Below are positions 6,340 through 31,594 of a DNA stretch of 37,668 nucleotides, in pieces (the first letter of the stretch is position 1; each line of letters begins with the position of its first letter). This stretch comes from Myxococcota bacterium (GTDB taxonomy: Bacteria; Myxococcota; XYA12-FULL-58-9; JALHOP01): NCBI GenBank assembly GCA_041288095.1, contig JBGGMJ010000100.1:1-37668 (forward strand). Direction: 5' to 3'. A program made the position numbers and the translations under genes. The notes beneath the pieces were generated by a model. It had not been told where the DNA came from. It saw only the letters and a program-made list of their open reading frames with translations, and did not search any database.

Positions 6340-6447
6340 GCGGCGCGGTTCCCTTTGAAACGTGCGCGCCGTCTACCACGACGGGTGCCGGGCCGTAAGT
6401 GCGGCTAGAGTGCCCTCAAAGAGCGCTTTCGGCGCACTGCGTCACAC

Positions 6448-8007
6448 TCAACCGAGACGCACCCACGCGCTGGGCTCGAGCTTCGAGAGCTCGCCGCCGA
6501 GGAGGCTCTGAACCGCCGCGGAGAGAGCAGCCCAGACCGGCTCGTCGCTCGCCCAGAGGACGGTGGTTGGGGCGTCATCGACTGTGTCGACCGCCACGGC
6601 GATGCGGGCCGCGAGGGGAAAGAGGGCGCGGTCGATCGCCGCGGCGTCCATGGTGACCGAGGCGCCGGCGATGCTCACCTCGAAGTCGCTGTCTTCGGCG
6701 TTGCGAGCCAGCTCGACTTGCTTCGCGAGGGCTTGGCGCAGTGATGGATCGTCGTCGACGTCGATGCCGTGATCCTTGAGCAGGGTCCGCGCGGTCGCTG
6801 CCTGCACCGCCGCGTCCGCGTCCCAGATACCGCAATCGCCCGCCGCGACGTAAGCATCGCGTCTCCCATCGCGGACACGTCCGACACGCGTCTCCACGCC
6901 GCTCACGGCGATGACGACCGCGTTGTCTTGGCTGACGCGCGCGGCCAGCGCCACGATGTCGTCCACGAACTCGAGGCTGTCGTTGCGGTCGAAAGCGGCG
7001 CGTAGCTCGGCGTCGATCGCGGCCGAACGGCTCGCCGGCAAGATGACGCGAAAGACCGGGGCTCTTCCGATGTGGTCGGCGTACGCTTGCAAGGTGTGGC
7101 GCGCCGCGGCCGCGGCAATCTCCGTCAACGCCACCGGCGTGCCCTGAACGGCGAGGGCAGGGCGACCGTTGTCGTCGGCGACCAGCGTGAGGCCGAGCTT
7201 GTTCGCGAAGAGCTGGACCCGCGCGCTTCGCCGGGTGTCCGCCCAAGCAAACAGGCCGGGCACGGCGAGCCCGTCGCCACCGATGGCGAGAGTGCTGTCG
7301 GTCATGCCGAGCGTCAGCGCCAGCTTGCGCTCGTCGAAACGGTCGGTCGGTCTGCCTTCGTTCGGCATCGACAGGGTGGCGAGAATGCTCGGGCCCGCGA
7401 GGTCGAAGATGACGTGAGGCGCCGCCTTCGCCTGGGCCTTCGGACGCGAGATCTCGACCGCCGGCTCGTCGAGCGTCAGCGGTAGGTCGAGCTCGAGGAG
7501 TGGCTCGCTCGCGGGCTTGTCGATTGCCTCCGCGAGGCCGGCGAGCAGCGATTCTTCTTCGTCGGCGCCGAGCTCGGCCAGTACCGTCTTGTTCGCTCTA
7601 GCGGACGCTTTGGGCTTCGCAGGCGCCGCGACCGACTTACGCGGCGCGCGCTCGCCCTCGCCGCGCGTCTTGACGATGTGGGTGACGAGATCCTCCGATT
7701 GCGGATCGAGGTCGACGAACTCGATGCCCATGCCCGGCGGCGAGTCCGGCTCCTTGGCGTCGGCGGCGCCCCGTGCCCAGCGGACGACGCCGGTGCCGCG
7801 GAAGATGCGGCTGTCGTCCTTGAGTCGGTACTCGAAGCGGACGCGGCTCCCGACCGGCGCCGGGTCGCGGGCGCGAATGAACAAACCCGTTCGCGAGACG
7901 TTGATCGAGAAACGCTCCACGAAGGTGTCGCGGTCGGGGTACTGGAGCTGCACCTTCAGCGTCACATCGACGCGTTGGTTACCCCGTTTTTGCGCGGAGT
8001 CGGTCAC
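6448..8007 (-). CDS. TIGR02266-type PilZ domain protein fused to a degenerate Hsp70/DnaK-like nucleotide-binding domain
   Basis: N-terminus has RGNQR, NVSRTGLFI, GVVRW and PPGMGIEF (PilZ). C-terminal part has DnaK-like remnants: VIFDLAG, LTEIAA...YADHIG...VILPA, KDHGIDVDDDPSLRQALAKQVELAR. Confidence 0.8.
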   Translation of the reverse strand: MTDSAQKRGNQRVDVTLKVQLQYPDRDTFVERFSINVSRTGLFIRARDPAPVGSRVRFEYRLKDDSRIFRGTGVVRWARGAADAKEPDSPPGMGIEFVDLDPQSEDLVTHIVKTRGEGERAPRKSVAAPAKPKASARANKTVLAELGADEEESLLAGLAEAIDKPASEPLLELDLPLTLDEPAVEISRPKAQAKAAPHVIFDLAGPSILATLSMPNEGRPTDRFDERKLALTLGMTDSTLAIGGDGLAVPGLFAWADTRRSARVQLFANKLGLTLVADDNGRPALAVQGTPVALTEIAAAAARHTLQAYADHIGRAPVFRVILPASRSAAIDAELRAAFDRNDSLEFVDDIVALAARVSQDNAVVIAVSGVETRVGRVRDGRRDAYVAAGDCGIWDADAAVQAATARTLLKDHGIDVDDDPSLRQALAKQVELARNAEDSDFEVSIAGASVTMDAAAIDRALFPLAARIAVAVDTVDDAPTTVLWASDEPVWAALSAAVQSLLGGELSKLEPSAWVRLG

Positions 8008-8021
8008 GTGTTTCTAGAGTG

Positions 8022-8693
8022 TCAGTCGACGAGCTTGTAGTCGAGCTGAACTTCCTTCTTCTTGCGAAGAACTTTCACCTTCGTTTGACCACCGCGCGCC
8101 GCGTGTAGGGCGCTCGATACGTCCGCGGCCGAGGCCACGGGATGGTCGTCGATGGCGACGACGACATCCGCGTTTTGCAGGCCTAGCTGGGCCGCTACGG
8201 ATTTGGGTTTGATCAACCGGATGACGACGCCGCCGGGCGCGGCCGCGAGCTTCGGCGCTCGGCCGGGGATCTGCAGGGCGGCGAGCTCACGCGCGAGCCA
8301 AGCGCGCTGCACGACGTAGCTGTCGCCGTTGATGCTCACCCCACCGGGGTCGACGCCGAGCGCCGCGTCGGCCGCGGACCAGGCGATGGCATCGACGTCG
8401 CGACCAGCGGACGAAGGCCGAGGAGCCGCGGCGGGCGCGGCCGTAACGGCAGATGCGGCGGCCGGCTCGGCGGAGCGACTCGCCTGGCCGTTTGCGAGCT
8501 CGCGCTGCAGCACCGAGAGCTGGTCTTCGATGCCCTTCAAGCGGTCGGCATCCGCCGGAGCCGCCGCGCCGCCACCACCGCCTCGCGACAGCTGAGCCAT
8601 CCGCGCTTCGAGGTTCGCGACGCGCGCTTCGGAGGCGCCACTGCAGGCGGCGCCGCACGCCGCGAGAAACACCGCTAAGAGAGCTCTACGCAT
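8022..8693 (-). CDS. Putative lipoprotein with C-terminal PDZ domain (GspC-PDZ-like)
   Basis: Signal/lipobox-like MRRALLAVFLAACGAAC, then a coiled coil and Ala/Pro linker, then GVVIRLIKPKSVAAQLGLQNADVVVAIDDHPV...VKVLRKKKEVQLDY. Confidence 0.8.
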   Translation of the reverse strand: MRRALLAVFLAACGAACSGASEARVANLEARMAQLSRGGGGGAAAPADADRLKGIEDQLSVLQRELANGQASRSAEPAAASAVTAAPAAAPRPSSAGRDVDAIAWSAADAALGVDPGGVSINGDSYVVQRAWLARELAALQIPGRAPKLAAAPGGVVIRLIKPKSVAAQLGLQNADVVVAIDDHPVASAADVSSALHAARGGQTKVKVLRKKKEVQLDYKLVD

Positions 8694-8763
8694 GCCGGAA
8701 TCGTACGCGGGCACGCTGGGTAGGTGCAAAAAACGTGGCGACAGCGTCGCGGCGCGTGTCCGA

Positions 8764-11682
8764 CTAGCCGCCCTCGACGAGCTGCGTCAGCCGCTCGTAG
8801 ACCGCGCCCAGCTTGCTCGGGTCGCTGCCACCGGCTTGCGCGAGCTCGGGCTTACCGCCACCGCGGCCGCCGACCAGCGGTGCCAGCTCGGCGATGAGCT
8901 TGCCCGCCTGGAAGCGGCTCGTTAGGTCCTTGGTGACCGCGATGAGCAACGCCGCTTTGCCGTCGGCCTCGGCGCCCAAGCAGACGATGCCGCTCGGCAC
9001 CTTGCTGCGCAGGTCGTCAGCGAGATCACGCAAGCCCTTGGCGTCGACGTTGCCGACGCTCGTGGCGAGCACGCGCACGCCGCCAATGTCCCGCGCCAAG
9101 GAGAGCAAGTCGCCGCTCTGCGACTTGAGCTGCGTGCGCTTGAGCTCGGCCAAGCGTTTGTCGTTGTCGCGCGCCGCTTGCGACATGTCGGAGAACGCCT
9201 TGGCGATGCCGCCGCTGTCGATGGCGGCGATGTTCTTCAACACCGCGTCAGTGTCGTTGTTGCGGGCATTGGCGAGCTGCACCAGGGCACGCCACAGGTC
9301 GCGCAGATCGCGCGCTTCGGCGAGCCCAATGGTCTTGGGGAGGGCGGGGGCCCGAACCGCGCTGGTGTCGATGCGCACCGGCGCGCCGCCGGCCGCCTCG
9401 ACGTCGCGCGCGAGATCGGTGGCCGAACGCACGGCCTTGGCGATGGCCAAGAGAATCGGCTCGTCCTCATCCGCTTTGGCGGGCACTCGCCCACCGAGGA
9501 TATCGGCCGCCGTGACCAAGCGCCGATGTGTCTTGGCGGCGGTCGCGAGCGCCGCCGCGCCGCTCTCGGCCTCGATACGGCGCACGCCGCTCGCCACGGC
9601 TTCTTCGCCGGTGACCAGGACCAACCCGAGCTCGCCGGTGCGTGACGCATGGGTGCCACCGCAGAACTCGACCGACTTGCCCATGGTGACGACGCGCACG
9701 ACGTCGCCGTACTTTTCGCCGAAGAGCATCATGGCGCCCTTGGTACGTGCCTCTTCGAACGGTAGCACTTCGGTGACCACTGGGTAGTCAGCTTTGACAC
9801 GGGCGTTGGCGTCGTCTTCGACGATGCGCAGCTGCGCCGCGGTCGGAGCCTCGAAGTGCGAGTAGTCGAAGCGCAGGTGCGTGTCGTCGACGAGCGAGCC
9901 CGCTTGCTTGACGTGATCGCCGAGGATGTCGCGCAGGGCGCCGTGCAGGAGGTGCGTCGCCGAGTGATGGGCGCGGATCTCCTTGCGGCGTGTCGCGTCA
10001 TAGCCCGCGAACACCGTGTCGCCGACCGACAGCTTGCCGGAGGTGAGGTTGGCCATGGAGACGAACAGACCGTCCGCCGGCTTTTGCGTGTCGAGCACAC
10101 TGGCGCGCGACCCGCCTGGACCCTCGATGCGGCCGGTGTCACCGACCTGGCCGCCGGATTCACCGTAGAACGGCGTCGGCGAGATGACGATCTCGAAATC
10201 GCCCGCCGAAACGGACTGCACTTCCTTGCCGTTCTGCACCAGCGCCTTGATGGTGGCTTGATGGCGTGGCGCGTCCTCGACCGCGTAGCCGACGAAATCG
10301 GTCGGACCGAGCCTCTGGCGCAGCTCCTTGTAGATGCCGGCGACGCCGGCCACGCCGAGATCACCGGCACGCGAGCGCTCTTGTTGCTCGCCCATCGCTT
10401 TTTCGAAGCCGGCGACGTCGACGGTCAAGCCACGCTCCCCCGCGATGACCTCGGTGAGGTCACGCGGGAAGCCGTAGGTGTCGTAGAGCTTGAAGACCGC
10501 GTCGCCCGGCAGCACCTGCTTGCCGCCGGCGCGCGTCGTCTCCATTGCGTCCTCGAGGAGCTTCAAGCCGGTGTCGAGCGTACGGCGGAAGCTGCGCTCT
10601 TCGAGGTCGGCGACCTTGCCGATCAAGGTCCGCGCGCTGACGAGCTCGGGATACGCCTCGCCCATCACCTCGACGACCTTGTCGCACGCCTTCTCGAAGA
10701 AGACGTCGCCGAAGCCGAGACGCTTTCCATGACGGATGGCCCGCCGCATGATGCGCCGCATGACGTAGCCACGGCCTTCGTTCGAGGGCTGCACGCCATC
10801 GGCCACCAAGAACGCGGTAGCGCGCGCGTGGTCGGCGATGACGCGCATCGAGACGTCGTCCTCGGAGTCGCTCTTGCCGTAGGCCTTGCCCACGCCCTGC
10901 GAGACATTCTCGAGGATCGGCATGAACAAGTCGGTGTGGTAGTTCGAGTCCACGCCCTGGAGCAGTCGGCAGAGCCGTTCGAGGCCCATGCCGGTGTCGA
11001 CCGACGGCTTGGGCAACGGAGTCAGAACTCCGTTTTGGCGGTCGAACTGCATGAAGACGTTGTTCCAGAACTCGATGATGCGGCCGTTGTCGAAGTCCTC
11101 GGGCTTGACCGGGCCCGAGCCGGTGTCGAAGTAGATCTCGGTGCACGGACCGCAGGGTCCGCTATCGCCCATCGCCCAGAAATTGTCTTCGCCCATGGCG
11201 ACGATGCGCTCGTCGGTGAGACCGGAGATCTTCTTCCACAGAGTGCGCGCCTCGTCGTCGGCGGGGATGCCGGGGGCGCCTTTGTAGATCGTCACCCAGA
11301 TGCGCGACTTGTCGAGGCCGAGCTCCTTGAACGAGAGGTTCCAAGCCAGCTCGATCGCTTGCTCCTTGAAATAGTCGCCGAAGGAGAAGTTGCCGAGCAT
11401 CTCGAAGAAGGTGTGATGGCGCGTCGTGCGGCCGACGGCTTCGAGGTCGTTGTGCTTGCCGGAGACGCGCATGCACTTCTGGGTGGTGGCGGCGCGTGAG
11501 TAGGCGCGCTTGTCCTGGCCGGTGAACACGTCCTTGAACTGGACCATGCCGGCGTTGGTGAACATGAGCGTGGCGTCGCCTTGCGGGACGAGCGGCGACG
11601 ACTTGACCACCTGGTGGCCGTGCTTTGCGAAGTAGTCGAGGAAGCCACGGCGAACCGCGGCCGCTTTCATCGAGGTAGCCAT
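8764..11682 (-). CDS. alaS: Alanine--tRNA ligase (with ~100 aa extra segment before C-Ala domain)
   Basis: FTNAGMVQFK, HHTFFEMLGNFSFGDYFK, GPCGPCTEI, DTGMGLER, TPFYGESGGQVGD, editing motifs HSATH and CGGTH, C-terminal GRGGGKPELAQAGG. ATG at 11682 overlaps the upstream TGA. Confidence 0.98.
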   Translation of the reverse strand: MATSMKAAAVRRGFLDYFAKHGHQVVKSSPLVPQGDATLMFTNAGMVQFKDVFTGQDKRAYSRAATTQKCMRVSGKHNDLEAVGRTTRHHTFFEMLGNFSFGDYFKEQAIELAWNLSFKELGLDKSRIWVTIYKGAPGIPADDEARTLWKKISGLTDERIVAMGEDNFWAMGDSGPCGPCTEIYFDTGSGPVKPEDFDNGRIIEFWNNVFMQFDRQNGVLTPLPKPSVDTGMGLERLCRLLQGVDSNYHTDLFMPILENVSQGVGKAYGKSDSEDDVSMRVIADHARATAFLVADGVQPSNEGRGYVMRRIMRRAIRHGKRLGFGDVFFEKACDKVVEVMGEAYPELVSARTLIGKVADLEERSFRRTLDTGLKLLEDAMETTRAGGKQVLPGDAVFKLYDTYGFPRDLTEVIAGERGLTVDVAGFEKAMGEQQERSRAGDLGVAGVAGIYKELRQRLGPTDFVGYAVEDAPRHQATIKALVQNGKEVQSVSAGDFEIVISPTPFYGESGGQVGDTGRIEGPGGSRASVLDTQKPADGLFVSMANLTSGKLSVGDTVFAGYDATRRKEIRAHHSATHLLHGALRDILGDHVKQAGSLVDDTHLRFDYSHFEAPTAAQLRIVEDDANARVKADYPVVTEVLPFEEARTKGAMMLFGEKYGDVVRVVTMGKSVEFCGGTHASRTGELGLVLVTGEEAVASGVRRIEAESGAAALATAAKTHRRLVTAADILGGRVPAKADEDEPILLAIAKAVRSATDLARDVEAAGGAPVRIDTSAVRAPALPKTIGLAEARDLRDLWRALVQLANARNNDTDAVLKNIAAIDSGGIAKAFSDMSQAARDNDKRLAELKRTQLKSQSGDLLSLARDIGGVRVLATSVGNVDAKGLRDLADDLRSKVPSGIVCLGAEADGKAALLIAVTKDLTSRFQAGKLIAELAPLVGGRGGGKPELAQAGGSDPSKLGAVYERLTQLVEGG

Positions 11683-14946: not shown

Positions 14947-15155
14947 GGGCGTATATGGAGGCGCCCGGTCGGTGACGAAGCAACTTTGGCCCTGGCTCTG
15001 CCGAGAACAAAGTCGTCACTGATAATGGGCGGGGTTCTGCCCATCCTTGAGAAGCGCAGGCTGTCCGATAGCGTCCAACGCTCAAGCCTGCGGGAAACGG
15101 TGCTCGAGAGAAGGTCTAAACGAGCTCCGTACGGCGCAGCCGCTACCGGATGCGC
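14947..15155 (+). ncRNA. Candidate structured RNA / 5' leader (six consecutive stem-loops), family not recognised
   Basis: Stems: 14947-14952/14961-14966; 14968-14978/15013-15023; 15025-15032/15037-15044; 15055-15062/15085-15092; 15097-15106/15121-15130; 15134-15138/15151-15155. G-U pairs form on the + strand. Confidence 0.45.
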
Positions 15156-15236
15156 AAAGTAACCAAGGCTGTTCGAAGTGATGCGCGCTCCATGGTGTGC
15201 ATAGGCGTAGCACTCGAATCGTCCATAGGTGGTAGA

Positions 15237-16421
15237 ATGAAGAATGAAGTCACACATGCCCCTGCATCGCAGAAGCGTTCGGCCCAGGCCGACCGCGACG
15301 GCGCTGCACGGAGCCTGCGCCGCCAAGGGCGTGACCTTCATTCCAGCCCCTATGCGACCCCTGCCTGGGGTAACAACGCAACGCTTCGCGATACCGTCGT
15401 AGAAGCCCGTAATCTCACGCACGACACCCTGCTGGACCTCCAGCCGCTCATGCCGATGGCCGCCGATGACGACGTCACCGAGCTCGATATGCCGGTGCTC
15501 GCACGACCCGCCACGCGCCAGCCCAAAGACAAAAAGCGCATGACGGCCAAGAAGTTACGGGCCGCTCCGGCGCTCGAGCACACGCCGCGCCGCATCAAAG
15601 CGCACACCGTCGCAAACCCGGTGCTGAACGGTGTTGCCCGGGAGCGCTTCGCCAAGGCCCAGACGGTCACCGCCATGGCCAAGGCACCGGAGCTCTCGCT
15701 CCTCCAAGGCCTTTTCTCGGTGAAGACGCTTGGCCGCCTCGCGGTGGCTGCCGTCGCGTTGGTCGTGGCGTTGCACCCGACGACCCGCGCCGTTGCCGAG
15801 AACGTGGTCAGCTCTCTGAGCGAAGACGCGTCGATGGTCGCTCTGAGCGATCCGCGCGACCCCAAGGAGTTCGTCTCCGACCTCGCGATCGTCATGCCGC
15901 GGCCGACCATCGTGTTGACGCGCCAGGACGCGGTGGCCCAGGAGCTCCTCAAGTTCTCGCGCACCATGTCGACGCAAGACGTCCTGCGTACGGCCCAGGC
16001 CATCAGCGAAGAGGCCGAGCGCCTGGGTTACGACCCGCTTCTCTTGCTCGCGCTCATCCACATCGAGTCGTTCTACGACCACCTTGCTTTGTCGCCAGTG
16101 GGCGCCGAGGGCCTGATGCAGCTCATGCCGCCCACCGCCGAGTGGATGGCCGGCCGTCTGCAACTGCGCTGGGACCAGGGTCACACGTTCGACCCGGTGC
16201 TCAACGTTCGCCTGGGCAGTCAGTACCTGGCCTACCTGCACCGCGAGTTCGGCCGCATGGATTATGCGCTTACAGCGTACAACCGGGGCCCACACGCCAC
16301 CCGGTACCTGGTCGACCGTTTTGGCCGCTTGCCGCCGCCGATCTACGAGTTCTATGCCGGCAAGGTCCTCGGCTACTACGAGAAGCTGAAGGCGATGTAC
16401 GGCAAGTTGCCGATGGGATGA
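15237..16421 (+). CDS. Lytic transglycosylase (SLT domain) with long N-terminal region and TM anchor
   Basis: LALIHIESFY (catalytic Glu), SPVGAEGLMQLMPPTA, DPVLNVRLGSQYL and ALTAYNRGP. TM segment LAVAAVALVVAL. Start uncertain: ATG 15237 follows AGGTGG, but the ORF is open from 15150. Confidence 0.9.
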   Translation: MKNEVTHAPASQKRSAQADRDGAARSLRRQGRDLHSSPYATPAWGNNATLRDTVVEARNLTHDTLLDLQPLMPMAADDDVTELDMPVLARPATRQPKDKKRMTAKKLRAAPALEHTPRRIKAHTVANPVLNGVARERFAKAQTVTAMAKAPELSLLQGLFSVKTLGRLAVAAVALVVALHPTTRAVAENVVSSLSEDASMVALSDPRDPKEFVSDLAIVMPRPTIVLTRQDAVAQELLKFSRTMSTQDVLRTAQAISEEAERLGYDPLLLLALIHIESFYDHLALSPVGAEGLMQLMPPTAEWMAGRLQLRWDQGHTFDPVLNVRLGSQYLAYLHREFGRMDYALTAYNRGPHATRYLVDRFGRLPPPIYEFYAGKVLGYYEKLKAMYGKLPMG

Positions 16422-16434
16422 TATCCTTCGGTTT

Positions 16435-19400
16435 GTGAAGGCCTACGCGAGCTTTCGAGAGCGCGCCCTCCACGAGAGCCAGCGCTACGGGGACGATCCC
16501 TACGTGTTTTTGCGCGAGCTCGTGCAAAACGCTCGGGACGCCGGCGCACGCCTCGTTCGGGTCAACGTGTCGGTCGAGGCCGGGCGCGCTCGCATCGTCT
16601 TCGAGGACGATGGCAGCGGCATGACCTTCAAGCACGCGAAGGGCTACCTCTTCCGGCTGTACGCCAGCAGCAAAGAGAACCAGGCTGATGCCGTCGGTCA
16701 CTTCGGCGTCGGCTTCTGGTCGGTGCTGCGCTGGACACCCGAGAGCTTGCGCATCGAGTCGCGCACTGGTGACTCCGAGGGAGCTACCGACGCCTGGGGT
16801 GTCGAGCTCGATGCGTCGCTCTCGAAGGTCACCGACGTGCGCTGCGCTTTGTCGTCCGGCGGGACGCGCATCGTCATGGAGCGCGCCACCCGGGACGACG
16901 ATCTCGTAAACCTCGCGCGGACGGTGCGCGAGCGCCTGGCGTACTACTGCCGCTACGTGCGGGTGCGCGGCGGCAAGGAACGCCTGCACCTCTGGTGCAA
17001 CGGCGAGCGTGTCGATCGCGAGCTCGACGTCGCGTCCGTCATGGAAGACAGCGGCAGCGAGGCCACGCTGGCGATGAGCTTCTCGAGCGCGGGTGCCGCC
17101 GGCATCGTTGCGCTCGCCGCGACGCCGAAGGTGCAGCTCTACGCACGCGGTCTCTTGGTGAGCGAAGCCACCGTGCTCGATGAGCTCGACGGTGCCGCTA
17201 GCGGCCGGCGTGACGGCTTCGGGACCAGCGGCCTCGCGCCGGTGGTCGTCCTCAACTCCGATCGGCTCGACGTCGTGTTGTCGCGACGCAAGGCACGCGA
17301 CAGTCGCGAGCTACGGCGTCTCATGCGCTTGGCGCGCGCGCGGCTCGATCGCTTGGTGAGCCATGCCGTCGACGGAGTCGTCGAGCGTAGCTTCCTCGAC
17401 AAGACGAGCGATGCCATCGCCGAGGGTGTGCGTGCCCTGGGTGGCGGTCTCGCCGTCGCGGTGCTCGCGGTTTGGCTTCTGGTCATTGCCGCCGGCGCCC
17501 TCGCGGCGCTCTTGTTGTGGCGCGGGCCGCAAGGTGGGGCAGGGGAGCGGCCGGTCATGACCGTCGTGCGTGGACCGACAGCGGCCGCCGCCGACGGCTA
17601 TCGCGGCGAGGCAGCTCCAGTGGTCGGTTCGAGCGACGTCGCCGCGCTCACCGGGGGCTCGCGTCCCGTCGGCAACATCGTTGGCTATGGCGGAGCGATC
17701 GTCGACGTCCCCGACACCTACGGGCCGACGTGGAGCTTCGGCTATCGCGGACCGTCGCGCGTCTTCTTCAAGGCCCTGACTCTCGACCGCTACGAGTCGG
17801 GGCACGGCTTCGTGCGGCGTGAGCTGCCGATTACCGGCCCCTATCAAGGCGTTGCCTGTGGCCGTGGCGCGCGCACCTGCATCGACGTCGTCACGCAAGT
17901 CGTCGCCAACGACACACCGTTCGTGCTGCCCGTGCCCACGGGCCATGGCGTGGTCGATCACAGCGTCACCATCGACGGCGCGCCGCAGGAGCTGTCCACC
18001 AACGCGGTTGGCGAGGCGCTCCTGCGTCTCGAGTCTGGGCGGCGCGGCACCCTGCGCTACCAGGTCGCGCCCGCGGCCGCTGCGGCGGAAAGCCCACCCT
18101 TGCCCGCGCCGCTCACTTTGGGAGAGCCCTGGGACAGCTTGCTCGCGCGCGCCGTGAAGCTGCCCGTACATCGCCGCGTGGAGATGGTGACGAGCACCGT
18201 CCGCGATACCATCCGCTATGACGTAACGCCGGTGACCGCCGCGATGTTCGCTCATGCGCACGGGGAATGGCATGCGCGCGTCATCGCCGTGGGCGCGGGT
18301 GACTGCGACGTCAAGAACGGCTTGAACGCATTGTTGCTCCGCCAGCTCGGCGTCGATGCGCGCCTCGCCATCGGCATCGCCGGCGAAGACGGCGCGGCGA
18401 GGCCTAGCCTGCACGCCTGGACCGAGTATCTTGCCGGTGGGCGCTGGCACGTGATCGATGCAACCGGCCAGCCCGCGGCCTTCGATGTCGCGGCGGAGCG
18501 CGCGAAGGAGCTCGCCATGCGCCGCGCGGGCGGCGACCCGGCCGTGGTCGCCGTGGGAGTCCCGAGCGCGGCTGATGCTCCGTCGCGCCGCAAAGGCGAG
18601 ACGCGGCACGAGCGCCGGACGGTCGTCTCCCCCGACGCGTCGTCGCGTGCCGAGCCGCCACCGACTCTGCCAGTCGCCGAGGCCATCAGCGCGCCGCAAC
18701 CGAGTCTTGCGATGTCTCCAGCCGCCACCGCGGCGCCTCCAGCCGAGCCACGGAGCCGCTGGCTCGCGCGCCTCGACGCATGGTTCGATCGCATCTATGC
18801 CGTCACCGAGACCGTCCCGCGGCGCGCCTCATGGGCCGCGATCGCCGCCATCGGCTTGCTCGCGAGCGTCATGGTCATCGCGCGCAGTCGCGTGCGTGAG
18901 CGCCTGGTGAACGACGGTCCGCGCGACTCGCGTCGCGAAGCCCTCGCCAAGATGGTTCACGATATGCTGACGCAGCCGCACGCTTGGCGTGGTGTCGGCA
19001 GAGCCTGGCACCAACGCCTGCTGCCGGTGTTGTCGGGCCGGCCGATGAGTCTCGAGGAAGCGCTGCGGCGCGCCCGCGACAATGTCCTGTTCGTGTCGCG
19101 GTCGCGCTCCAAGCTCGCCGACGCGGCGGCGCGCTGCGGGACACCGGTGCTCGACGCCGCCGACCCGTTCTTCGGCAAGGTCGTCGTGCCGCTGTTGCGG
19201 ACAGTCGATCTCGACAACATCGAGCCGCTCCTCGGCATGCCTGACACGCCGACGTCCCCGCACCGGGGTCTGACCCGCGCCAACGCGGTGCTCGCCGAGG
19301 CGAAGGCGGACGTGTGCTTCGTTTTGGCGGAGGCGCTGCACGATGCACCCCTGCGGGATGTCGACCTGACGCGGGTCCGTCTGCCCAAGGGCATCAGGGC

Positions 19401-19605
19401 GCCGCGTCGCTTCATCGCCGTCTCCCCCAGTCACCGCGAGGTCCGCGCCCGCCTCGAGAAGCTCGAGCGGGATCCCGAGCGCGGCGTGTTCATCTGGCTC
19501 GACTGGTCGGTCGAGCGCAGCGAGCTCCTCGCCGATCACACGAGCCGTGTACGTGAGTGCGCGGCCACCTATGCCGTCGACGTGCTCGGGGCTGGGGAAC
19601 GATGA
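16435..19605 (+). CDS. Hsp90/HtpG-like GHKL ATPase fused with membrane-flanked transglutaminase-like (Cys-His-Asp) domain
   Basis: GHKL motifs FLRELVQNARDAGA, EDDGSGM, SSK, GHFGVGFWS and GGTRI. TM ~17440-17520. TGase motifs GDCD, LLRQLGVDARLAIG, HAWTEY and WHVIDAT. Second TM ~18826-18882, followed by ~240 aa C-terminal region. Confidence 0.88.
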   Translation: MKAYASFRERALHESQRYGDDPYVFLRELVQNARDAGARLVRVNVSVEAGRARIVFEDDGSGMTFKHAKGYLFRLYASSKENQADAVGHFGVGFWSVLRWTPESLRIESRTGDSEGATDAWGVELDASLSKVTDVRCALSSGGTRIVMERATRDDDLVNLARTVRERLAYYCRYVRVRGGKERLHLWCNGERVDRELDVASVMEDSGSEATLAMSFSSAGAAGIVALAATPKVQLYARGLLVSEATVLDELDGAASGRRDGFGTSGLAPVVVLNSDRLDVVLSRRKARDSRELRRLMRLARARLDRLVSHAVDGVVERSFLDKTSDAIAEGVRALGGGLAVAVLAVWLLVIAAGALAALLLWRGPQGGAGERPVMTVVRGPTAAAADGYRGEAAPVVGSSDVAALTGGSRPVGNIVGYGGAIVDVPDTYGPTWSFGYRGPSRVFFKALTLDRYESGHGFVRRELPITGPYQGVACGRGARTCIDVVTQVVANDTPFVLPVPTGHGVVDHSVTIDGAPQELSTNAVGEALLRLESGRRGTLRYQVAPAAAAAESPPLPAPLTLGEPWDSLLARAVKLPVHRRVEMVTSTVRDTIRYDVTPVTAAMFAHAHGEWHARVIAVGAGDCDVKNGLNALLLRQLGVDARLAIGIAGEDGAARPSLHAWTEYLAGGRWHVIDATGQPAAFDVAAERAKELAMRRAGGDPAVVAVGVPSAADAPSRRKGETRHERRTVVSPDASSRAEPPPTLPVAEAISAPQPSLAMSPAATAAPPAEPRSRWLARLDAWFDRIYAVTETVPRRASWAAIAAIGLLASVMVIARSRVRERLVNDGPRDSRREALAKMVHDMLTQPHAWRGVGRAWHQRLLPVLSGRPMSLEEALRRARDNVLFVSRSRSKLADAAARCGTPVLDAADPFFGKVVVPLLRTVDLDNIEPLLGMPDTPTSPHRGLTRANAVLAEAKADVCFVLAEALHDAPLRDVDLTRVRLPKGIRAPRRFIAVSPSHREVRARLEKLERDPERGVFIWLDWSVERSELLADHTSRVRECAATYAVDVLGAGER

Positions 19606-21158
19606 CGACGCGCGACGCCAGGGAGCTGCTCTCGATCGACGTCACCGCCGAGATCAAGAAGCTCGGTACGCAGCAGCTGGCGACGCCGGTCGATGTCGTT
19701 GCCGCGGCGGCACGCATGACCATCGAGTGCGGGGCGCACGCTGTCGACGTGGTCACCCTGCGCTCCGGCACCAAGATCACGGCGCGTGGTGCGCGGATGC
19801 CGCTCGATGTGCATGCGCAGCTCGCGTGCATCCTCGATGCATCAGGGAGCAGCGACACTCGCCACGCGGCCCTGGTCGCCTGGGAGAACGACCGCCGTCT
19901 CGAGTGGCTCGCGGTCGTCTGCGCCGGTGACGTCGAGCTGCGTACGCAGTCCGAGGAAGGCACCGACGTGCTCGAGGTGCGTGACGCCGCCGGCCGCCAT
20001 CGCCGAACGAACGAGACCGGCGAGCCGCAAATGGTCATCGTCTTGCGCCGCACCCGCACCGGCGGCGATCTCGAACAGCTCACCCGCGTGTTCGCGTTCG
20101 CGCGCTTGCCGGTGACGGTCGACGGCCATCGGGTGAGCTTCGGGCTCGAGCTGCCCGAGGCGCTCATCGCCGTACCCATCGCGGGCGCGAGCTTCAACGG
20201 CGCCGTCGGTTTGCCGCGCGAGCCGAGCTTCGCCCGCACGACGCTGGTGCGCTCCGAGGTGGTGGACCGCGACGTGGTGACGAGCCCACTGCGCGGCCGC
20301 GTGCATGTCGCGGTGGTGAGTGCTCGCTCGCGCCTCCCCGACACCGCGGTCATCGAGCGCACGGTGATCGCGGCGCGTGATCAGCTCTACGACGAGCTCA
20401 AGGCGCGTTACGCGAAGCTCACCGGCGACGAGCGGGCAGCCGCCGCCGAGCTGCTCTTTCGCACCTGCGAAGAGCGCGGCGACACGGGCTTCCTCGATGA
20501 CGCGCGCATCATCGCGACGACGCGTGGCGACTTCGTGACCTTGACGACTCTGCGTGGCATGGCACGCGACGGCGTCTTGCTCGCGGCGGAGCCCGATCAG
20601 GTCGTCGACTCCGATCTCCGTGACATCGGGTTGCCGGTCTTGAGCCCTCGTGAGCGGGCCTTCATCACTCGCTTCGTCGGCCTGCGCTGCGTGACACCGA
20701 CCTATCGCAGCGCCGACGCACCGCTGCGCCGCCTGCGCCGCTGGTTGCGCGACGGTCTGCATGCGGCGAGCAAGAGCTTGGCGCAACGCGGCTTCGGGCT
20801 CGGCGAAGGCGCGGTGCTCGACGACGACGAGTTGCGTCCCGAGGAGCGTGTTTTCATGCTGGCGCTCACGGACCTCGTGGGGACCGGCCGCTTCCGTGTC
20901 CCAGGGACCTCGGTGGGTGAACGCGTGCAGATCCTGGCGACGTCGCGCGGGCGCTTGCCCGCGGCGGTGCGCCGTCGCCGCGACCGCTGCGTCGTCGCCG
21001 TGCCGCTGCGCAGCCTCCGTGGCGCGCGCTTGGTGCGGATGGTGGCTCGTGACCCCGCCACGTTGATCATCGCCACGACGTTGGTGTTCGGCGGTCAGGA
21101 TGGCTATGGCCGCGATCGCGGACGCGCTCGCGCCGCGCTCGTCAAGAACACACCCTAG
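19602..21158 (+). CDS. Degenerate (probably ATPase-dead) GHKL/Hsp90-like protein
   Basis: ATGA overlap with the upstream gene. N-terminus LSIDVTAEIKKLGTQQLATPVDVVAAAARMTIECGAHAVDV aligns by eye with the GHKL motif I region but lacks E/N. FARLPVTVDGHRV parallels LHLWCNGERV of the partner. Confidence 0.65.
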   Translation: MTTRDARELLSIDVTAEIKKLGTQQLATPVDVVAAAARMTIECGAHAVDVVTLRSGTKITARGARMPLDVHAQLACILDASGSSDTRHAALVAWENDRRLEWLAVVCAGDVELRTQSEEGTDVLEVRDAAGRHRRTNETGEPQMVIVLRRTRTGGDLEQLTRVFAFARLPVTVDGHRVSFGLELPEALIAVPIAGASFNGAVGLPREPSFARTTLVRSEVVDRDVVTSPLRGRVHVAVVSARSRLPDTAVIERTVIAARDQLYDELKARYAKLTGDERAAAAELLFRTCEERGDTGFLDDARIIATTRGDFVTLTTLRGMARDGVLLAAEPDQVVDSDLRDIGLPVLSPRERAFITRFVGLRCVTPTYRSADAPLRRLRRWLRDGLHAASKSLAQRGFGLGEGAVLDDDELRPEERVFMLALTDLVGTGRFRVPGTSVGERVQILATSRGRLPAAVRRRRDRCVVAVPLRSLRGARLVRMVARDPATLIIATTLVFGGQDGYGRDRGRARAALVKNTP

Positions 21159-21607
21159 GACCCCGGCTTCACGCTGCTCGCGGCGACCGCGTAGCCACCG
21201 CGCGACGCATGTTTCTCGACCTGCGCCAGCACCTCGCGCTCGCGCATGTAGACGTAGCCGGTGCACACCTGAGTTTCGTGCTCCCAGGCGCCGCCCTTGT
21301 CGAACTGCGCTTCGAGGGTGCGCACGACCGCGACTTCGTAGTCGGTAATAGCGAACACCCAGCGCTCGCGCATGGCAACGCCCATGCTCTCGTCGGCGCG
21401 GCTCACTGCCTCGATGCGATCCTTGGTCCGGGCGACCACGGTCCAGCCTTCATGGCGCACCAGCTGCTCGACGGCGGCGGTGAGATCGGCCCCGACTTGC
21501 GGGAGTGTGAGTGTGGGCGAAACGTACTGTTTGGCGCCGTCGAATTGGCCAGTGGTGGCGCAGGCGGCGGAGCTCAGAATGATGACGGCGGTAAGCAGGT
21601 GGCGCAT
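21155..21607 (-). CDS. Hypothetical lipoprotein
   Basis: MRHLLTAVIILSSAAC lipobox-like signal; 150 aa; convergent stop overlap (CTAG) with the neighbouring gene. Confidence 0.75.
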   Translation of the reverse strand: MRHLLTAVIILSSAACATTGQFDGAKQYVSPTLTLPQVGADLTAAVEQLVRHEGWTVVARTKDRIEAVSRADESMGVAMRERWVFAITDYEVAVVRTLEAQFDKGGAWEHETQVCTGYVYMREREVLAQVEKHASRGGYAVAASSVKPGS

Positions 21608-21798
21608 AGGTTCAAGCCCTTCGCCACCAGGTATTTCAACGGTCGTGCCGCCGCCGTTTTCGCTCTAGCGGGCTATTCGAGGCCGATCAGAGCCGTACGC
21701 GCGCGGGTTCGAGTGACCCAGAGGCGCGAGCCGCCAGCACTGGTCCGCAATAGAACACGAGAGAATTTTCGCCTCAGTTTTTGCCGGGCCGCGCGACG

Positions 21799-22722
21799 TC
21801 AGTCTTTTCCGAACTTGTCGAACGCCTCTTCGAAGCCGGGGTTGAGCTCGTCGAATTTGCGCTCGCCGATGGCTTCGCTCGCCAAGGTCATGTTGAAGCC
21901 ACCGATGGTCGTGGTCCCGATGGGGTCACCGGGCATGGCGAAGACACGGACGACATCGGTCTTCTTCTCACTGAAGCCGGCGGTGCTGGTGTAGTGCGCG
22001 ATGACCGCGACGTGCATGCCGGTGCGTGAGTGGAATGCTTCGACCTCGGCGGTGATGGCGCGGCCAGGAGTCGCGGCAACCCGCATGGCACCCAGCCATA
22101 CGTTACGCTGGTCATAGAGGCGAACCACCGGCGTCATGCCCAAGGCGCCGCCGGTCTCGCCACGAATGAGGATGCGCGTCTTGTTCGACTCGGCGCGCAC
22201 CTTGTCGCCCGGGTCGATGGCCATGCGGATGTTGCTCTTCTCCATGTTGAGCCGGTGGCTCGCGAGCTCAGAGCGGCTGGCGAGGACGTTCCAGGCCTCG
22301 GTCGGTCGGGCAGCCTGCCATTCGGGAGCGCTGGACGGGGCGCCGTGGCGGAAGGTCTCGACTACGCGATCGGACGTGGTGTCGAGGAGGCGGATGACCT
22401 CGTAGCTGGTGCCGCGGCCGGCGCGGATCTCGCGAACGGTCACCTGAACGGCGGCGATGGCCTCGTTGCGCGAGAAGCCGAGGAGCTTGGCGGCCTCCTC
22501 GCGGTAGGCCGGTCCTTCCCCTGGCTGATCGGCTGGATGCTCAGGTAGCTCGCCCTTGGGGCTCGCAAACCGCATCTTATGACGGTTTGCCGAGGGCTTG
22601 GCCGCGGTGGGCTTGGGCTTGCCGCCAACGTGCTCGACCCAGAGCGTAGGTGTAGGTTTAGCACCCACCAGGGCGGGTGTTGCAACGATGATAAGAGCTA
22701 GGAGGCGTGCGCGGGCGCACAT
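21799..22722 (-). CDS. Secreted hypothetical protein
   Basis: 307 aa ORF with a signal-peptide-like N-terminus (RARLLALIIVATPALVGA) and genome-like codon usage. No family recognised. Confidence 0.7.
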   Translation of the reverse strand: MCARARLLALIIVATPALVGAKPTPTLWVEHVGGKPKPTAAKPSANRHKMRFASPKGELPEHPADQPGEGPAYREEAAKLLGFSRNEAIAAVQVTVREIRAGRGTSYEVIRLLDTTSDRVVETFRHGAPSSAPEWQAARPTEAWNVLASRSELASHRLNMEKSNIRMAIDPGDKVRAESNKTRILIRGETGGALGMTPVVRLYDQRNVWLGAMRVAATPGRAITAEVEAFHSRTGMHVAVIAHYTSTAGFSEKKTDVVRVFAMPGDPIGTTTIGGFNMTLASEAIGERKFDELNPGFEEAFDKFGKD

Positions 22723-27965: not shown

Positions 27966-29249
27966 ATGAGCGAGATCCTCCACGCCGTCAAAGGCATGAA
28001 CGACGTGCTCCCCGAATCGAGCGAGTCGTTCCTCTCCACCGCCGTCTGGGACAAGGTGATTGATACCGCCCGCCGTGTCATCGAGGGCTACGGCTACCGT
28101 CAGGTACTCATCCCCATCGTCGAGGAGACGGCGCTTTTCGCGCGCGGCATCGGCGAGGGCACCGACATCGTTTCGAAGGAGATGTACACGTTCAGCGATC
28201 GCGGCGAGCGGTCGCTCACCCTGCGCCCCGAGGGCACCGCCGGCTGCGTGCGCGCGTTCATCGAGCACGGTTTCGCCAAGACCGACCCGGTGCAGAAGTG
28301 GTGGTACGTCGGCCCGATGTTCCGCGCCGAGCGCCCTCAGAAAGGGCGGTACCGGCAGTTCTATCAAATCGGCGCCGAGCTCTATGGCTCCGCGGACCCC
28401 GCCGCCGACGCGGAGATCATCGTCATGATGTGGCGCATCTGTCAGGCGCTCGGCATCCAGGGGGTGACGCCGCGGGTGAACACGCTCGGCGACACCGAGA
28501 GTCGCGACCGCTATCGCGAAGTGCTGCGCGGCTACATGCGCGCCAACAGTGACAAGCTCTGCGACGCGTGCAAGGCGCGCATCGACACCAACCCGCTGCG
28601 CTTCCTCGACTGCAAGAATCCGTCGTGCAAGGAGCTCGCTCGCAAGGCCCCCGACATCATGGAGTCGCTCTCGGCCAAGTCGCGCGAGCACTTCGAGAAA
28701 GTCACCACCTATCTCCGCGATTGCGGACTCGAGTACGTGCGTGATCCCGCCCTGGTCCGCGGCCTCGACTACTACAGCGAGACCACCTTCGAGCTGACGA
28801 CGAGCGCATTGGGTGCCCAGGATGCTGTGGGTGGAGGTGGGCGATACGACGGTCTCATCGAGGAGCTCGGCGGCGCACCCACATCGGCGATCGGTTTCGC
28901 CATGGGGGTCGAGCGCCTGGCGTTGTTGGTGACGGCGACTCAGCAAGTGGCGTCAGGGCCGCACCTGTTCATCGCGCCGATGGCCGGCGCCGAGTCGTTC
29001 GCGCTCCAGCTCGCGGATGCGGTGCGGGGAGGTGGACCGTACCGGGTGGAGGTCGACGTCACCGGTCGCAAGCTCAAGGGGCAGATGCGCCGCGCCGACA
29101 AAGTGGGTGCACGTTTCGCCCTGGTCCTGGGGGAAGACGAGATCGCGCGCCGCCATGGGAATCTGAAGGACCTCAGGGTATCCTCCAGCAGTGATGTCGC
29201 GTTGACCGGTGACGCGATCTGCGCTGCACTGGCGAAGCTCATCGCTTGA
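27966..29249 (+). CDS. hisS: Histidine--tRNA ligase
   Basis: KGMND, TDIVSKEMYTF, LRPEGTA, FRAERPQKGRYRQFYQ, LVRGLDYY, GGGRYDGL and GFAMGVERL. Confidence 0.98.
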   Translation: MSEILHAVKGMNDVLPESSESFLSTAVWDKVIDTARRVIEGYGYRQVLIPIVEETALFARGIGEGTDIVSKEMYTFSDRGERSLTLRPEGTAGCVRAFIEHGFAKTDPVQKWWYVGPMFRAERPQKGRYRQFYQIGAELYGSADPAADAEIIVMMWRICQALGIQGVTPRVNTLGDTESRDRYREVLRGYMRANSDKLCDACKARIDTNPLRFLDCKNPSCKELARKAPDIMESLSAKSREHFEKVTTYLRDCGLEYVRDPALVRGLDYYSETTFELTTSALGAQDAVGGGGRYDGLIEELGGAPTSAIGFAMGVERLALLVTATQQVASGPHLFIAPMAGAESFALQLADAVRGGGPYRVEVDVTGRKLKGQMRRADKVGARFALVLGEDEIARRHGNLKDLRVSSSSDVALTGDAICAALAKLIA

Positions 29250-29265
29250 TCCCGTAAAGGTGCCC

Positions 29266-30171
29266 ATGATCTCCCCCTCCCGTCTCCTGGTTCTCGCGTG
29301 TGCCCTCACCATGGTGCCGGCATACGCCGCCGCCGCCCCCAAGCCGACCAAGGCTGCCGGTAAGGACTCGGCCGCTAAAGCGGACGCGGCCAAGGCAGCC
29401 GAGAAGGCGCCCGAGACTCCCCCGCCCGCGCCCGCCCCGGAGCAGCCGGTGCTCTCGACCGCGGGCTCTCGCGAGAAGTTCGATGTCGGTGAAGCCGCGC
29501 CGACCTTCGCGCTGCGCGCCGTGAACCCCGAGGTCATCGGCGAGAATCTCGTCGCCGTCGATCGCTACTTCGGCGCCGACGCCAAGCAGCCCAAGAAAGC
29601 GGTCTTGATTTCGTTCTTCGCGACCTGGTGCGAGCCCTGCAAAAAGGAGATGCCGTTCCTTGCGGCGCTCTACGACACCTACAAGGACAAGGGTGTGATG
29701 GTCCTCTCGGTGTCCATCGACCGCGAAGCCGAGCAGATCGATGTCATCAAGTCGCTCGCGACCAACGCCAACGCGAAATATCCGGTGCTCTCCGACCGGT
29801 TCAACATCGTGGCCAAGCGTTACATGGTGGCGAAGCTGCCGCTGGTCTACGTCATGAGCCCGGACGGCAAGGTCGCGTTCTCGCGTGTCGGCTTCACCGA
29901 GGACACGCCGCGCGCGCTGGCCGACGAAGTCCGCAAGCTCATCGGCGAATCGGGTGCTCCGATGCCCGACACGCTGACGCGCTTCCTGGGCGGCGTGCCC
30001 GCGGTGGCGGACGCGGGTAAGACGGACCCGACCGTGGCGACCGCTACCGTGAACAAAACGACGACCGTGTCGGGCTCGACCACCACGGCGAACGACCCAG
30101 TGAAAACCGATGGCAGCGATGGCGCAACCAAGGGCAAGAAGACCAAGGCGAAGAAGGGGAAGCGCAAGTAG
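29266..30171 (+). CDS. TlpA/ResA-like thioredoxin-fold disulfide reductase (exported)
   Basis: Signal peptide, then VLISFFATWCEPCKKEMPFL, LPLVYV..PDGKV; low-complexity Lys-rich tail. Confidence 0.92.
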   Translation: MISPSRLLVLACALTMVPAYAAAAPKPTKAAGKDSAAKADAAKAAEKAPETPPPAPAPEQPVLSTAGSREKFDVGEAAPTFALRAVNPEVIGENLVAVDRYFGADAKQPKKAVLISFFATWCEPCKKEMPFLAALYDTYKDKGVMVLSVSIDREAEQIDVIKSLATNANAKYPVLSDRFNIVAKRYMVAKLPLVYVMSPDGKVAFSRVGFTEDTPRALADEVRKLIGESGAPMPDTLTRFLGGVPAVADAGKTDPTVATATVNKTTTVSGSTTTANDPVKTDGSDGATKGKKTKAKKGKRK

Positions 30172-31492: not shown

Positions 31493-31594
31493 CGCATTGC
31501 GCCAGGTGTCGGCTGCCCCCGGTACAGGCCTAAGGTCGCGTAGGCGCTAGCAACTTGGTCTTCTGGCTGCCGACAAGATCGAACCGGCACACTG

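Follow-up and report, generated by a model that had tools for sequence, protein, structure and literature searches.

A gene pair encoding an Hsp90-like ATPase split by a predicted transmembrane transglutaminase insert and a compact Hsp90-like partner

To our knowledge, Hsp90 has been described only as a soluble homodimeric chaperone. For bacteria, the available part of PMC3708813 recognises three forms only, hsp90A, B and C. The TgpA protein of Pseudomonas aeruginosa resides in the inner membrane: according to the part of PMC3507681 available, it carries a periplasmic domain (amino acids 180-544) between transmembrane helices, and this domain has calcium-independent transglutaminase activity in vitro. 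Here we describe a gene pair from a Myxococcota bacterium (assembly GCA_041288095.1, contig JBGGMJ010000100.1), in a stretch of 37,668 nucleotides that was analysed as a whole and is called the window below. Its first member, gene 1, encodes an Hsp90-like ATPase interrupted by two predicted transmembrane helices (TM1 and TM2) and, between them, a putative enzyme resembling that of TgpA. The second member, the partner gene, follows directly and encodes a compact Hsp90-like protein. The folds are known; the architecture that combines them, and the pairing of the two genes, are undescribed.

The architecture is well supported, through domain homologies, conservation and gene pairing. Membrane topology and a C-terminal heterodimer of the two products are predicted. 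On balance we lean towards a heterodimeric, membrane-embedded clamp of the Hsp90 type, in which ATP turnover on the cytoplasmic side would be coupled to a cysteine enzyme in the periplasm.

Domains and conservation of gene 1

Pfam reports four families in all in gene 1, including HATPase_c_3 (residues 26-115, E 3.8e-11, 43.6 bits against a cut-off of 25) and Transglut_core (residues 580-676, E 1.5e-8, 35.3 bits against a cut-off of 23). The ATP site is of the Hsp90 type, with E28, N32, D58, a GxG at residues 60-62 and a GxxGxG at residues 88-93. An initial annotation had already read gene 1 as an Hsp90/HtpG-like ATPase split by a membrane-spanning transglutaminase. A scripted motif search found its landmarks where they had been placed: the GHKL motifs RELVQN (16513), DDGSGM (16606) and GHFGVG (16696); the middle-domain-like motifs QLYARGLLV (17134) and LDVVLSRR (17266); and the C-terminal motifs LLPVLSGRPMSLEE (19018) and RRFIAVSPSHREV (19405).

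The N-terminal half was compared with known structures by means of profile A4, which covers residues 4-326. Against PDB sequences this profile gave 180 matches at E <= 0.01, and the best 60 of the 180 are all HtpG, Hsp83/86, TRAP1, GRP94 or Hsp90 alpha/beta. The matches include HtpG 2ior (E 6.2e-12), and the match to TRAP1 chains spans profile positions 19-291. With hhalign, the N domain aligns to Escherichia coli HtpG with a probability of 98.2% (E 4e-14). A search of the ESM Atlas with residues 1-330 returned generic HATPase_c_3 clusters only. Among characterised proteins, these sequence comparisons place the N domain nearest to Hsp90s, ahead of other GHKL classes.

The family is large. A k-mer search identified 29 homologues, of which 27 contain both PF13589 and PF01841, the remaining two being truncated. 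Searching 1.84 billion representatives with a profile yielded 12,442 proteins at E <= 0.001, 1,639 at E <= 1e-10 and 707 clusters at E <= 1e-30, and a single uninterrupted match ran from profile position 27 or earlier to position 947 or later in 138 of the 150 representatives listed. Among contigs taken from one genome per species, tblastn confirmed 367 relatives, in genomes of Myxococcota and Acidobacteriota. These relatives and clusters show that the architecture is no one-off chimera, a doubt that had accompanied the initial annotation. Database labels for members are 'ATP-binding protein', 'transglutaminase domain-containing protein' and 'sacsin N-terminal ATP-binding-like domain-containing protein'. 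A search for shorter relatives found 41 proteins, 8 of them at least 400 amino acids long, and 7 of those 8 are truncated copies of the same architecture; the eighth, P0221, is genuinely unsplit and is taken up below.

From the 367 confirmed stretches, 80 were retained as loci (designated by L numbers). Most come from Myxococcota lineages; twelve are from Acidobacteriota (L037, L038, L046, L056, L060, L064, L067, L069, L072, L073, L074 and L075) and one is from Fermentibacteria (L063). Cultured carriers are Enhygromyxa salina (L043, L045 and L078), Paraliomyxa miuraensis (L055) and Nannocystaceae ST9 (L044). Residue conservation was assessed in 68 full-length copies, with L025 set aside and truncated copies dropped. 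Each of the following is present in 68 of 68: E28, N32, D35, D58, G60, G62, K80, G88, G91 and G93 in the N domain; R284 further on; and C624 (at 18304), H660 (at 18412) and D675 (at 18457), the catalytic triad that had been proposed. Conservation of these motifs in the 68 homologues is far beyond chance.

Two hydrophobic segments enclose the enzyme. TM1 reaches a Kyte-Doolittle value of at least 1.6 in 68 of 68 homologues and TM2 in 64 of 68, the remaining four lying at 1.05-1.55. Lysine plus arginine in the 15-residue flanks averages 3.13 before TM1, 1.37 after TM1, 1.76 before TM2 and 3.91 after TM2; the predicted cytoplasmic flanks are the richer ones in 64 of the 68 homologues, with 2 ties. 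Together, the hydrophobic helices and this charge bias predict a topology with the N-terminus inside, the loop outside and the C-terminus inside, which would place the ATP-dependent parts in the cytoplasm. The earlier proposal of two cytoplasmic Hsp90-like halves and a periplasmic enzyme is borne out, as a prediction.

The loop contains the Transglut_core domain with its Cys-His-Asp triad and is TgpA-like in sequence, with putative catalytic activity. Loop profile A6 has one relative among PDB sequences, P. aeruginosa TgpA (6g49, E 2.7e-8). The segment FFKALTLDRY, taken initially as TgpA-like, does lie at 17764 in the scripted search; the alignment to the TgpA structure spans only profile positions 140-301. 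Upstream of the transglutaminase core (window positions 17857-17880), the loop holds a pair of cysteines, C475 in 57 and C482 in 56 of the 68 homologues. These two may form a disulfide, and a conserved cysteine pair fits an oxidising compartment.

The part beyond TM2 was examined through alignment A3, comprising the last 235 residues (822-1056) from 68 loci. The AlphaFold2 model made from A3 has a predicted local distance difference test score (pLDDT) of 91.6 and a predicted template modelling score (pTM) of 0.85. Foldseek returned 445 matches to the PDB at E <= 10, 32 of them at E <= 0.001, and all 35 matches listed (to rank 50) are Hsp90 family chains containing middle and C-terminal domains. 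The best is human MC-HSP90 (3q6m_C, E 8.9e-5, probability 0.99, query TM-score (TMq) 0.25), with Hsc82, GRP94, TRAP1 and HtpG also among the best. The suggested kinship of this region with the middle and C-terminal domains of Hsp90 is supported at the level of the fold. The model points to a true but remote Hsp90 homology, with the subdomains arranged differently.

Table 1. Position and basis of the features in the window
Feature	Position	Strand	Basis or detail
Gene 1: split Hsp90-like ATPase with transmembrane-transglutaminase-transmembrane insert	16435..19605	+	open reading frame, 1056 amino acids, GTG start
Bergerat-fold (GHKL) Hsp90-type ATP-binding domain, residues ~20-175	16492..16959	+	Pfam, NCBIfam, PDB profile, hhalign
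Middle-domain-like segment, residues 176-333	16960..17433	+	R284 in LSR motif (codon 17284-17286); terminal helix enters TM1
Transmembrane helix 1 (TM1), residues 334-362	17434..17520	+	Kyte-Doolittle, 19-residue window
Predicted periplasmic domain, residues 363-797	17521..18825	+	transglutaminase core 580-676 (nucleotides 18172-18462), triad C624/H660/D675
Transmembrane helix 2 (TM2), residues 798-816	18826..18882	+	Kyte-Doolittle
C-terminal part, predicted cytoplasmic, residues 822-1056	18898..19602	+	likeness to Hsp90 small middle subdomain and C-terminal dimerisation domain
Partner gene: unsplit, compact Hsp90-like paralogue (by profile comparison and fold)	19602..21158	+	open reading frame, 518 amino acids
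SLT lytic transglycosylase, membrane-anchored; context outside the conserved module	15150..16421	+	Pfam SLT, E 1.4e-21

The partner and its kinship with gene 1

The initial annotation had been concerned with gene 1. The downstream Hsp90-like partner, which looks like a pseudo-ATPase, is an addition to that account. Its ATG overlaps the stop codon of gene 1 (ATGA). A partner lies downstream in 69 of the 69 loci having at least 1200 nucleotides of room: profile A2, made from close homologues, detected it in 64, and the broader profile A5 (63 sequences) found it in the other five. The start and stop codons share four nucleotides in 51 of 70 loci (27 ATGA, 22 GTGA and 2 TTGA). Among the remaining loci, most of 18 have the two genes within 16 nucleotides, and L025 has both in one open reading frame (ORF). 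The two genes are strictly co-inherited and translationally coupled.

Locus L025 has one further peculiarity. Its ORF at 5977-10488 (1503 amino acids) is matched by the profiles of the main gene and of the partner alike, and another ORF, at 8300-8851, corresponds to part of the main gene. Such an arrangement probably reflects a frameshift in the metagenome-assembled genome rather than a true fusion.

In the databases the partner is labelled 'hypothetical protein', and it has no match in Pfam, NCBIfam or PADLOC. Its AlphaFold2 model (pLDDT 87.7) leads by Foldseek to full-length Hsp90 (6xlg_A, E 3.8e-14, TMq 0.44, 653 columns); there are 461 matches at E <= 0.001, and all those listed belong to the Hsp90 family. 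A structure search of the ESM Atlas returned HtpG and 'Hsp90xo' clusters (TM-score 0.43-0.45), together with Myxococcota clusters of 475-549 amino acids annotated HATPase_c_3/SACS (TM-score 0.58/0.63). Comparison of the partner profile with HtpG by hhalign is insignificant (0.5%).

Kinship between the two genes is apparent only from deep alignments. BLASTP of gene 1 against the partner is insignificant (best E 3.2), and a first, shallow profile comparison gave 28% only. With deeper alignments, residues 20-245 of gene 1 match residues 27-227 of the partner (probability 98.3%, E 2.2e-14), and, collinear with this, residues 829-1035 match residues 283-517 (probability 34%, E 4e-4). These profile matches argue that the partner is a paralogue of gene 1.

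Taken together, the profile comparisons locate the insert. Gene 1 residues ~305-828 correspond to partner residues ~262-283, which form the turn between helices 248-272 and 275-292 of the partner model, after the beta-rich large middle subdomain. The Hsp90-like halves of gene 1 are separated by ~525 residues, including the two transmembrane helices; the interruption takes the place of some 20 residues where the chain turns between the two long helical-connector helices of the middle domain. The gene 1 helix before the turn continues straight into TM1, and the first helix of the C-terminal model lies ~10 residues past TM2. This continuity suggests that the membrane hairpin extends the cytoplasmic helical hairpin, with the enzyme at the tip.

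An unsplit protein related to both genes is also known. P0221 (511 amino acids) is compact and has intact ATP motifs; it matches A4 at E 2.6e-32 and A5 with a probability of 93.6%, and its match to A3 is weak (17.9%, E 1.4e-3) and collinear. P0221 may resemble the ancestral form of both genes. Near its C-terminus it has the sequence 'LINRDHPTV', reminiscent of the 'NPDH' motif of Hsp90.

Positions of the ATP site were placed in the partner by profile alignment to the N-terminal part of gene 1. At the catalytic glutamate position, the 63 family members have Glu in 46 cases and Ala in 12; the window copy has Ala. The adenine-binding Asp position is occupied by Asp in 25 of 63. At the position of the magnesium-binding Asn, the commonest residues are Arg (32), Leu (6), Met (5), Ala (5) and Phe (3), and Asn occurs in at most 3 of 63. 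The glycine-rich loop of gene 1 is replaced by a stretch of the partner's own, R87, H88, A90 and E95, each kept in 54-61 of 63. Lacking the Asn and the glycine loop, the partner looks like a pseudo-ATPase.

Finally, complex prediction was applied, alongside 3 controls, to partner residues 276-518 (A5) and the C-terminal stretch of gene 1 covered by A3. The heterodimer has an ipSAE of 0.82, and the best control 0.00; in calibration, 116 of 157 solved complexes came up to the mark, as did 2 of 215 mismatched pairs. At least 91% of contacts are common to the runs, with a partner pLDDT of at least 71. The predicted interface consists of the last helices of each protein: residues 1005-1052 of gene 1 and 473-518 of the partner. 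Hsp90 dimerises at the equivalent C-terminal site.

A proposed coupled clamp weighed against its alternatives

The clamp towards which we lean might work as follows. Gene 1 and its partner would heterodimerise through their C-terminal helices, in the manner of Hsp90 protomers. ATP binding and hydrolysis at the single competent site would then produce a clamp motion like that of Hsp90, and this motion would shift the two transmembrane helices, gating or positioning the periplasmic cysteine enzyme. In this way, substrates in the envelope would be cross-linked, deamidated or cleaved under inside-out control, in an ATP-free compartment. In its most specific form, the proposal makes the clamp a transmembrane mechanotransducer: one competent ATP site, in a heterodimer with a pseudo-ATPase paralogue, would drive the two membrane helices that emerge from the helical hairpin of the middle domain, and so power or gate a periplasmic cysteine transamidase or protease. 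We advance that form tentatively, as a possibility that we are readier to doubt than to assert.

A number of results weigh against this interpretation. Some concern the likeness to Hsp90 itself. Curated Hsp90 models are not reached by gene 1 (HtpG 30.4 bits against a cut-off of 371; the HSP90-family model PRK14083 37.3 against 455), and Pfam gives no HSP90 (PF00183) match in gene 1 at E <= 1. The initial label "Hsp90/HtpG-like" stands in the sense of a very divergent Hsp90-like protein, and falls in the sense of an HtpG orthologue. The mid-region profile A7 (residues 172-330) found nothing relevant among PDB sequences. Its sole local alignment to HtpG sets the family pattern 'LLNSDxLEVxLSR' on HtpG residues 324-336 ('LIDSSDLPLNVSR'), with R284 on R336 (NVSRE), at a marginal E of 0.065 (Z=1). 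R336 of HtpG is presumably the catalytic-loop arginine of the middle domain. For the fold of its middle domain, gene 1 depends on its sequence homology to the partner. Profile A3 has only a chance-level match among PDB sequences (1wdv, E 0.46). Compared with HtpG by hhalign it is insignificant (probability 0.1%), with SPSHREV, a stretch singled out in the initial annotation, on HtpG NPDHVLV at the top, and the best hidden Markov model alignment, of A3 positions 112-131 to HtpG 503-528, has an E of 0.12. Three motifs align to HtpG in collinear order, each at no better than a marginal E (0.065, 0.064 and 0.12, with Z=1).

Other points concern the models. TM-scores from Foldseek are low for the C-terminal part (0.24-0.32, with root-mean-square deviations of 13-15 Å) and reach at most 0.44 for the partner; low TM-scores imply either that the domains are arranged unlike those of solved Hsp90s or that the models are off. 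The success of the complex prediction may reflect mere likeness, because C-terminal dimers of Hsp90 have already been solved, and the modelled contacts may be compatible with homodimers as well. The predicted topology derives only from hydropathy and charge bias. Coupling between the two activities, its direction and the substrate are what we infer. Nor do the neighbouring genes help: phmmer searches with the window neighbours, and Pfam on the longest upstream ORF in each of 57 loci (out of 78 having one), revealed no conserved third gene and no clue to the substrate.

It is unlikely, in our judgement, that the modules are simply independent, with the Hsp90-like parts serving as a tethered chaperone or as a scaffold for dimerisation or anchoring, and the enzyme constitutive and uncoupled. 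Enzymes of the TgpA type do work with no Hsp90-like component; the periplasmic domain of TgpA is active in vitro by itself (PMC3507681, available part), and an interface predicted in the C-terminal helices would suit a pure dimerisation role. Yet the ATP-site residues and R284 are strict in all 68 copies, unlike what a mere scaffold would need; the insertion lies within the Hsp90 body and not at an end; and the partner, a likely pseudo-ATPase, is always retained.

Signalling in the opposite direction is somewhat more doubtful still. Here an envelope substrate would bind or acylate the periplasmic domain, and the transmembrane hairpin would relay this event to a cytoplasmic clamp that holds or releases a client. 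The anatomy is the same as for the inside-out clamp, with a direct link from helix to membrane and a conserved cytoplasmic ATP site, and the partner motif R87 H88 A90 E95 could serve as a site for a client or effector. However, the invariant triad favours a working enzyme over a mere ligand sensor, and the upstream scans of 57 loci found no conserved neighbouring output gene.

We consider it very improbable that a membrane enzyme has here been fused to a GHKL ATPase of some other kind, be it MutL/MORC/paraMORC, sacsin/Tiamat-like or a histidine kinase. The top NCBIfam model is indeed the sacsin N-terminal ATP-binding-like model (P_loop_sacsin, NF047352; 55.4 bits, above the cut-off of 50), MutL matches weakly at about 29 bits (the best model 29.4 against a cut-off of 180), and TmtA (Tiamat) of PADLOC matches residues 6-99 at E 4.3e-15. 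These matches are nonetheless confined to the Bergerat fold, whereas the best 60 of the 180 PDB sequence matches are all from the Hsp90 family; the fold matches listed, too, are from the Hsp90 family only, including its middle and C-terminal domains, with no MutL or MORC. Against a histidine kinase, HATPase_c scores 22.1, under its cut-off of 26.4, and none of the four Pfam families is a phospho-acceptor domain. Against a defence ATPase, the partner lacks a PADLOC match and the neighbouring genes are housekeeping genes. A reading as a Tiamat defence protein was rejected, since only residues 6-99 align, on positions 59-149 of the 1486-position TmtA model.

That an ATPase gene and a transglutaminase gene were joined only by chimeric assembly or faulty annotation is scarcely credible: no evidence for this was found, the nearest thing being the apparent frameshift at L025, and the architecture is uninterrupted in 68 full-length copies from independent assemblies, including those of the cultured E. 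salina, P. miuraensis and Nannocystaceae ST9.

Genomic setting and comparison with known systems

The window has a high G+C content (0.63-0.72), and its genes are those of chromosomal housekeeping and signalling: NAD-glutamate dehydrogenase, alanyl-tRNA synthetase, Lon, histidyl-tRNA synthetase, PilZ, GGDEF and FeoB. The SLT transglycosylase gene stops 13 nucleotides 5' of gene 1. Its upstream position is confined to the relatives closest to the window (L001-L004, L013 and L015), and it may represent a clade-specific tie of the gene pair to peptidoglycan remodelling. Upstream genes differ among the 57 other loci. In 7 of these 57 (including L020, L029, L043, L051, L077 and L078), mostly from Nannocystaceae or Enhygromyxa, the longest ORF upstream encodes a protein with an IgGFc_binding domain, which may be lineage synteny instead of a functional link.

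Downstream of the gene pair are two ORFs, 21209-21994 (+) and 21799-22722 (-), with no Pfam match. Their conservation does not extend beyond the closest relatives (L001/L002 and L002-L004). The two overlap each other, so that both are unlikely to be genuine from end to end. A second lytic transglycosylase gene (LysM, PG_binding_1 and SLT; 31595-33022, +) lies 12 kb downstream and is adjoined by a pair of DsbD-like and thioredoxin-like genes (29209-31492). The genes at 29209-33022 are an ordinary envelope gene cluster.

If the coupled clamp is real, gene 1 would give the Hsp90 family its first member that is integral to the membrane. It would also be the first instance in which Hsp90 machinery acts on an enzyme inserted into the same polypeptide. 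A split-Hsp90 family with an ATP-site-degenerate paralogue would widen the known uses of the Hsp90 ATPase cycle and offer a natural asymmetric dimer, with one active site, for mechanistic study. It would also add a route by which cytoplasmic ATP energy is brought to the periplasm, beside ABC-type (ATP-binding cassette) and LapD-type systems. Finally, it would open a way into the function of TgpA-type transglutaminases, which are poorly understood, and of two gene families labelled only 'ATP-binding protein' or 'hypothetical protein'.

The initial annotation knew of no description of this architecture. A full-text literature search, with subscription journals outside its scope, likewise found no account of a transmembrane transglutaminase inserted into a protein of the Hsp90-like or GHKL kind, and no paper in which 'HATPase_c_3' and 'Transglut_core' occur together. 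Where GHKL and transglutaminase-like domains are mentioned in the part of PMC3710099 available, the architectures are unrelated ones.

Several known systems share one component or another with the gene pair. The sacsin repeat region (NF047352) and Tiamat TmtA resemble gene 1 in their N-terminal ATP-binding domain, a likeness of ~80-95 residues of the Bergerat fold; they differ from it in the remainder of the architecture. TgpA (PA2873, 6g49) has in common with gene 1 a periplasmic Cys-His-Asp domain of transglutaminase fold between transmembrane helices, as predicted here. Its operon partners are PA2875 and PA2874, which we take to encode a MoxR-type ATPase and a DUF58 protein. TgpA differs in its N-terminal DUF3488 module of five transmembrane helices and in having no GHKL or Hsp90-like parts, as far as the available part of PMC3507681 describes it. 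In gene 1, by contrast, there is one helix on each side only, Pfam finds no DUF3488, and the enzyme module is embedded in an ATPase.

LapG has the fold of a transglutaminase-like cysteine protease. The LapD-LapG system, an analogy of working principle only, resembles our proposal in that a protease in the periplasm is governed, from the other side of the inner membrane, by a module that binds nucleotides in the cytoplasm (PMC4359373 and PMC3032545, available parts). It differs in that LapD is an unrelated receptor for cyclic di-GMP (HAMP/GGDEF/EAL), the protease is a separate, soluble and sequestered protein, and ATP is not hydrolysed.

The Hsp90 family (HtpG, TRAP1 and GRP94) comes closest in the ATPase. 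Gene 1 shares its Bergerat ATP site, with all nucleotide-binding motifs present, matches its small middle subdomain and C-terminal domain at the fold level, and is predicted to dimerise by its C-terminal helices. Unlike Hsp90, gene 1 would be ~100 residues shorter than HtpG without its insert, and it falls outside the curated HSP90/HtpG models. Its chain is broken by the transmembrane-enzyme-transmembrane segment instead of forming a continuous soluble polypeptide. Presumably, in place of a homodimer, it pairs with an obligatory paralogue whose ATP site has degenerated.

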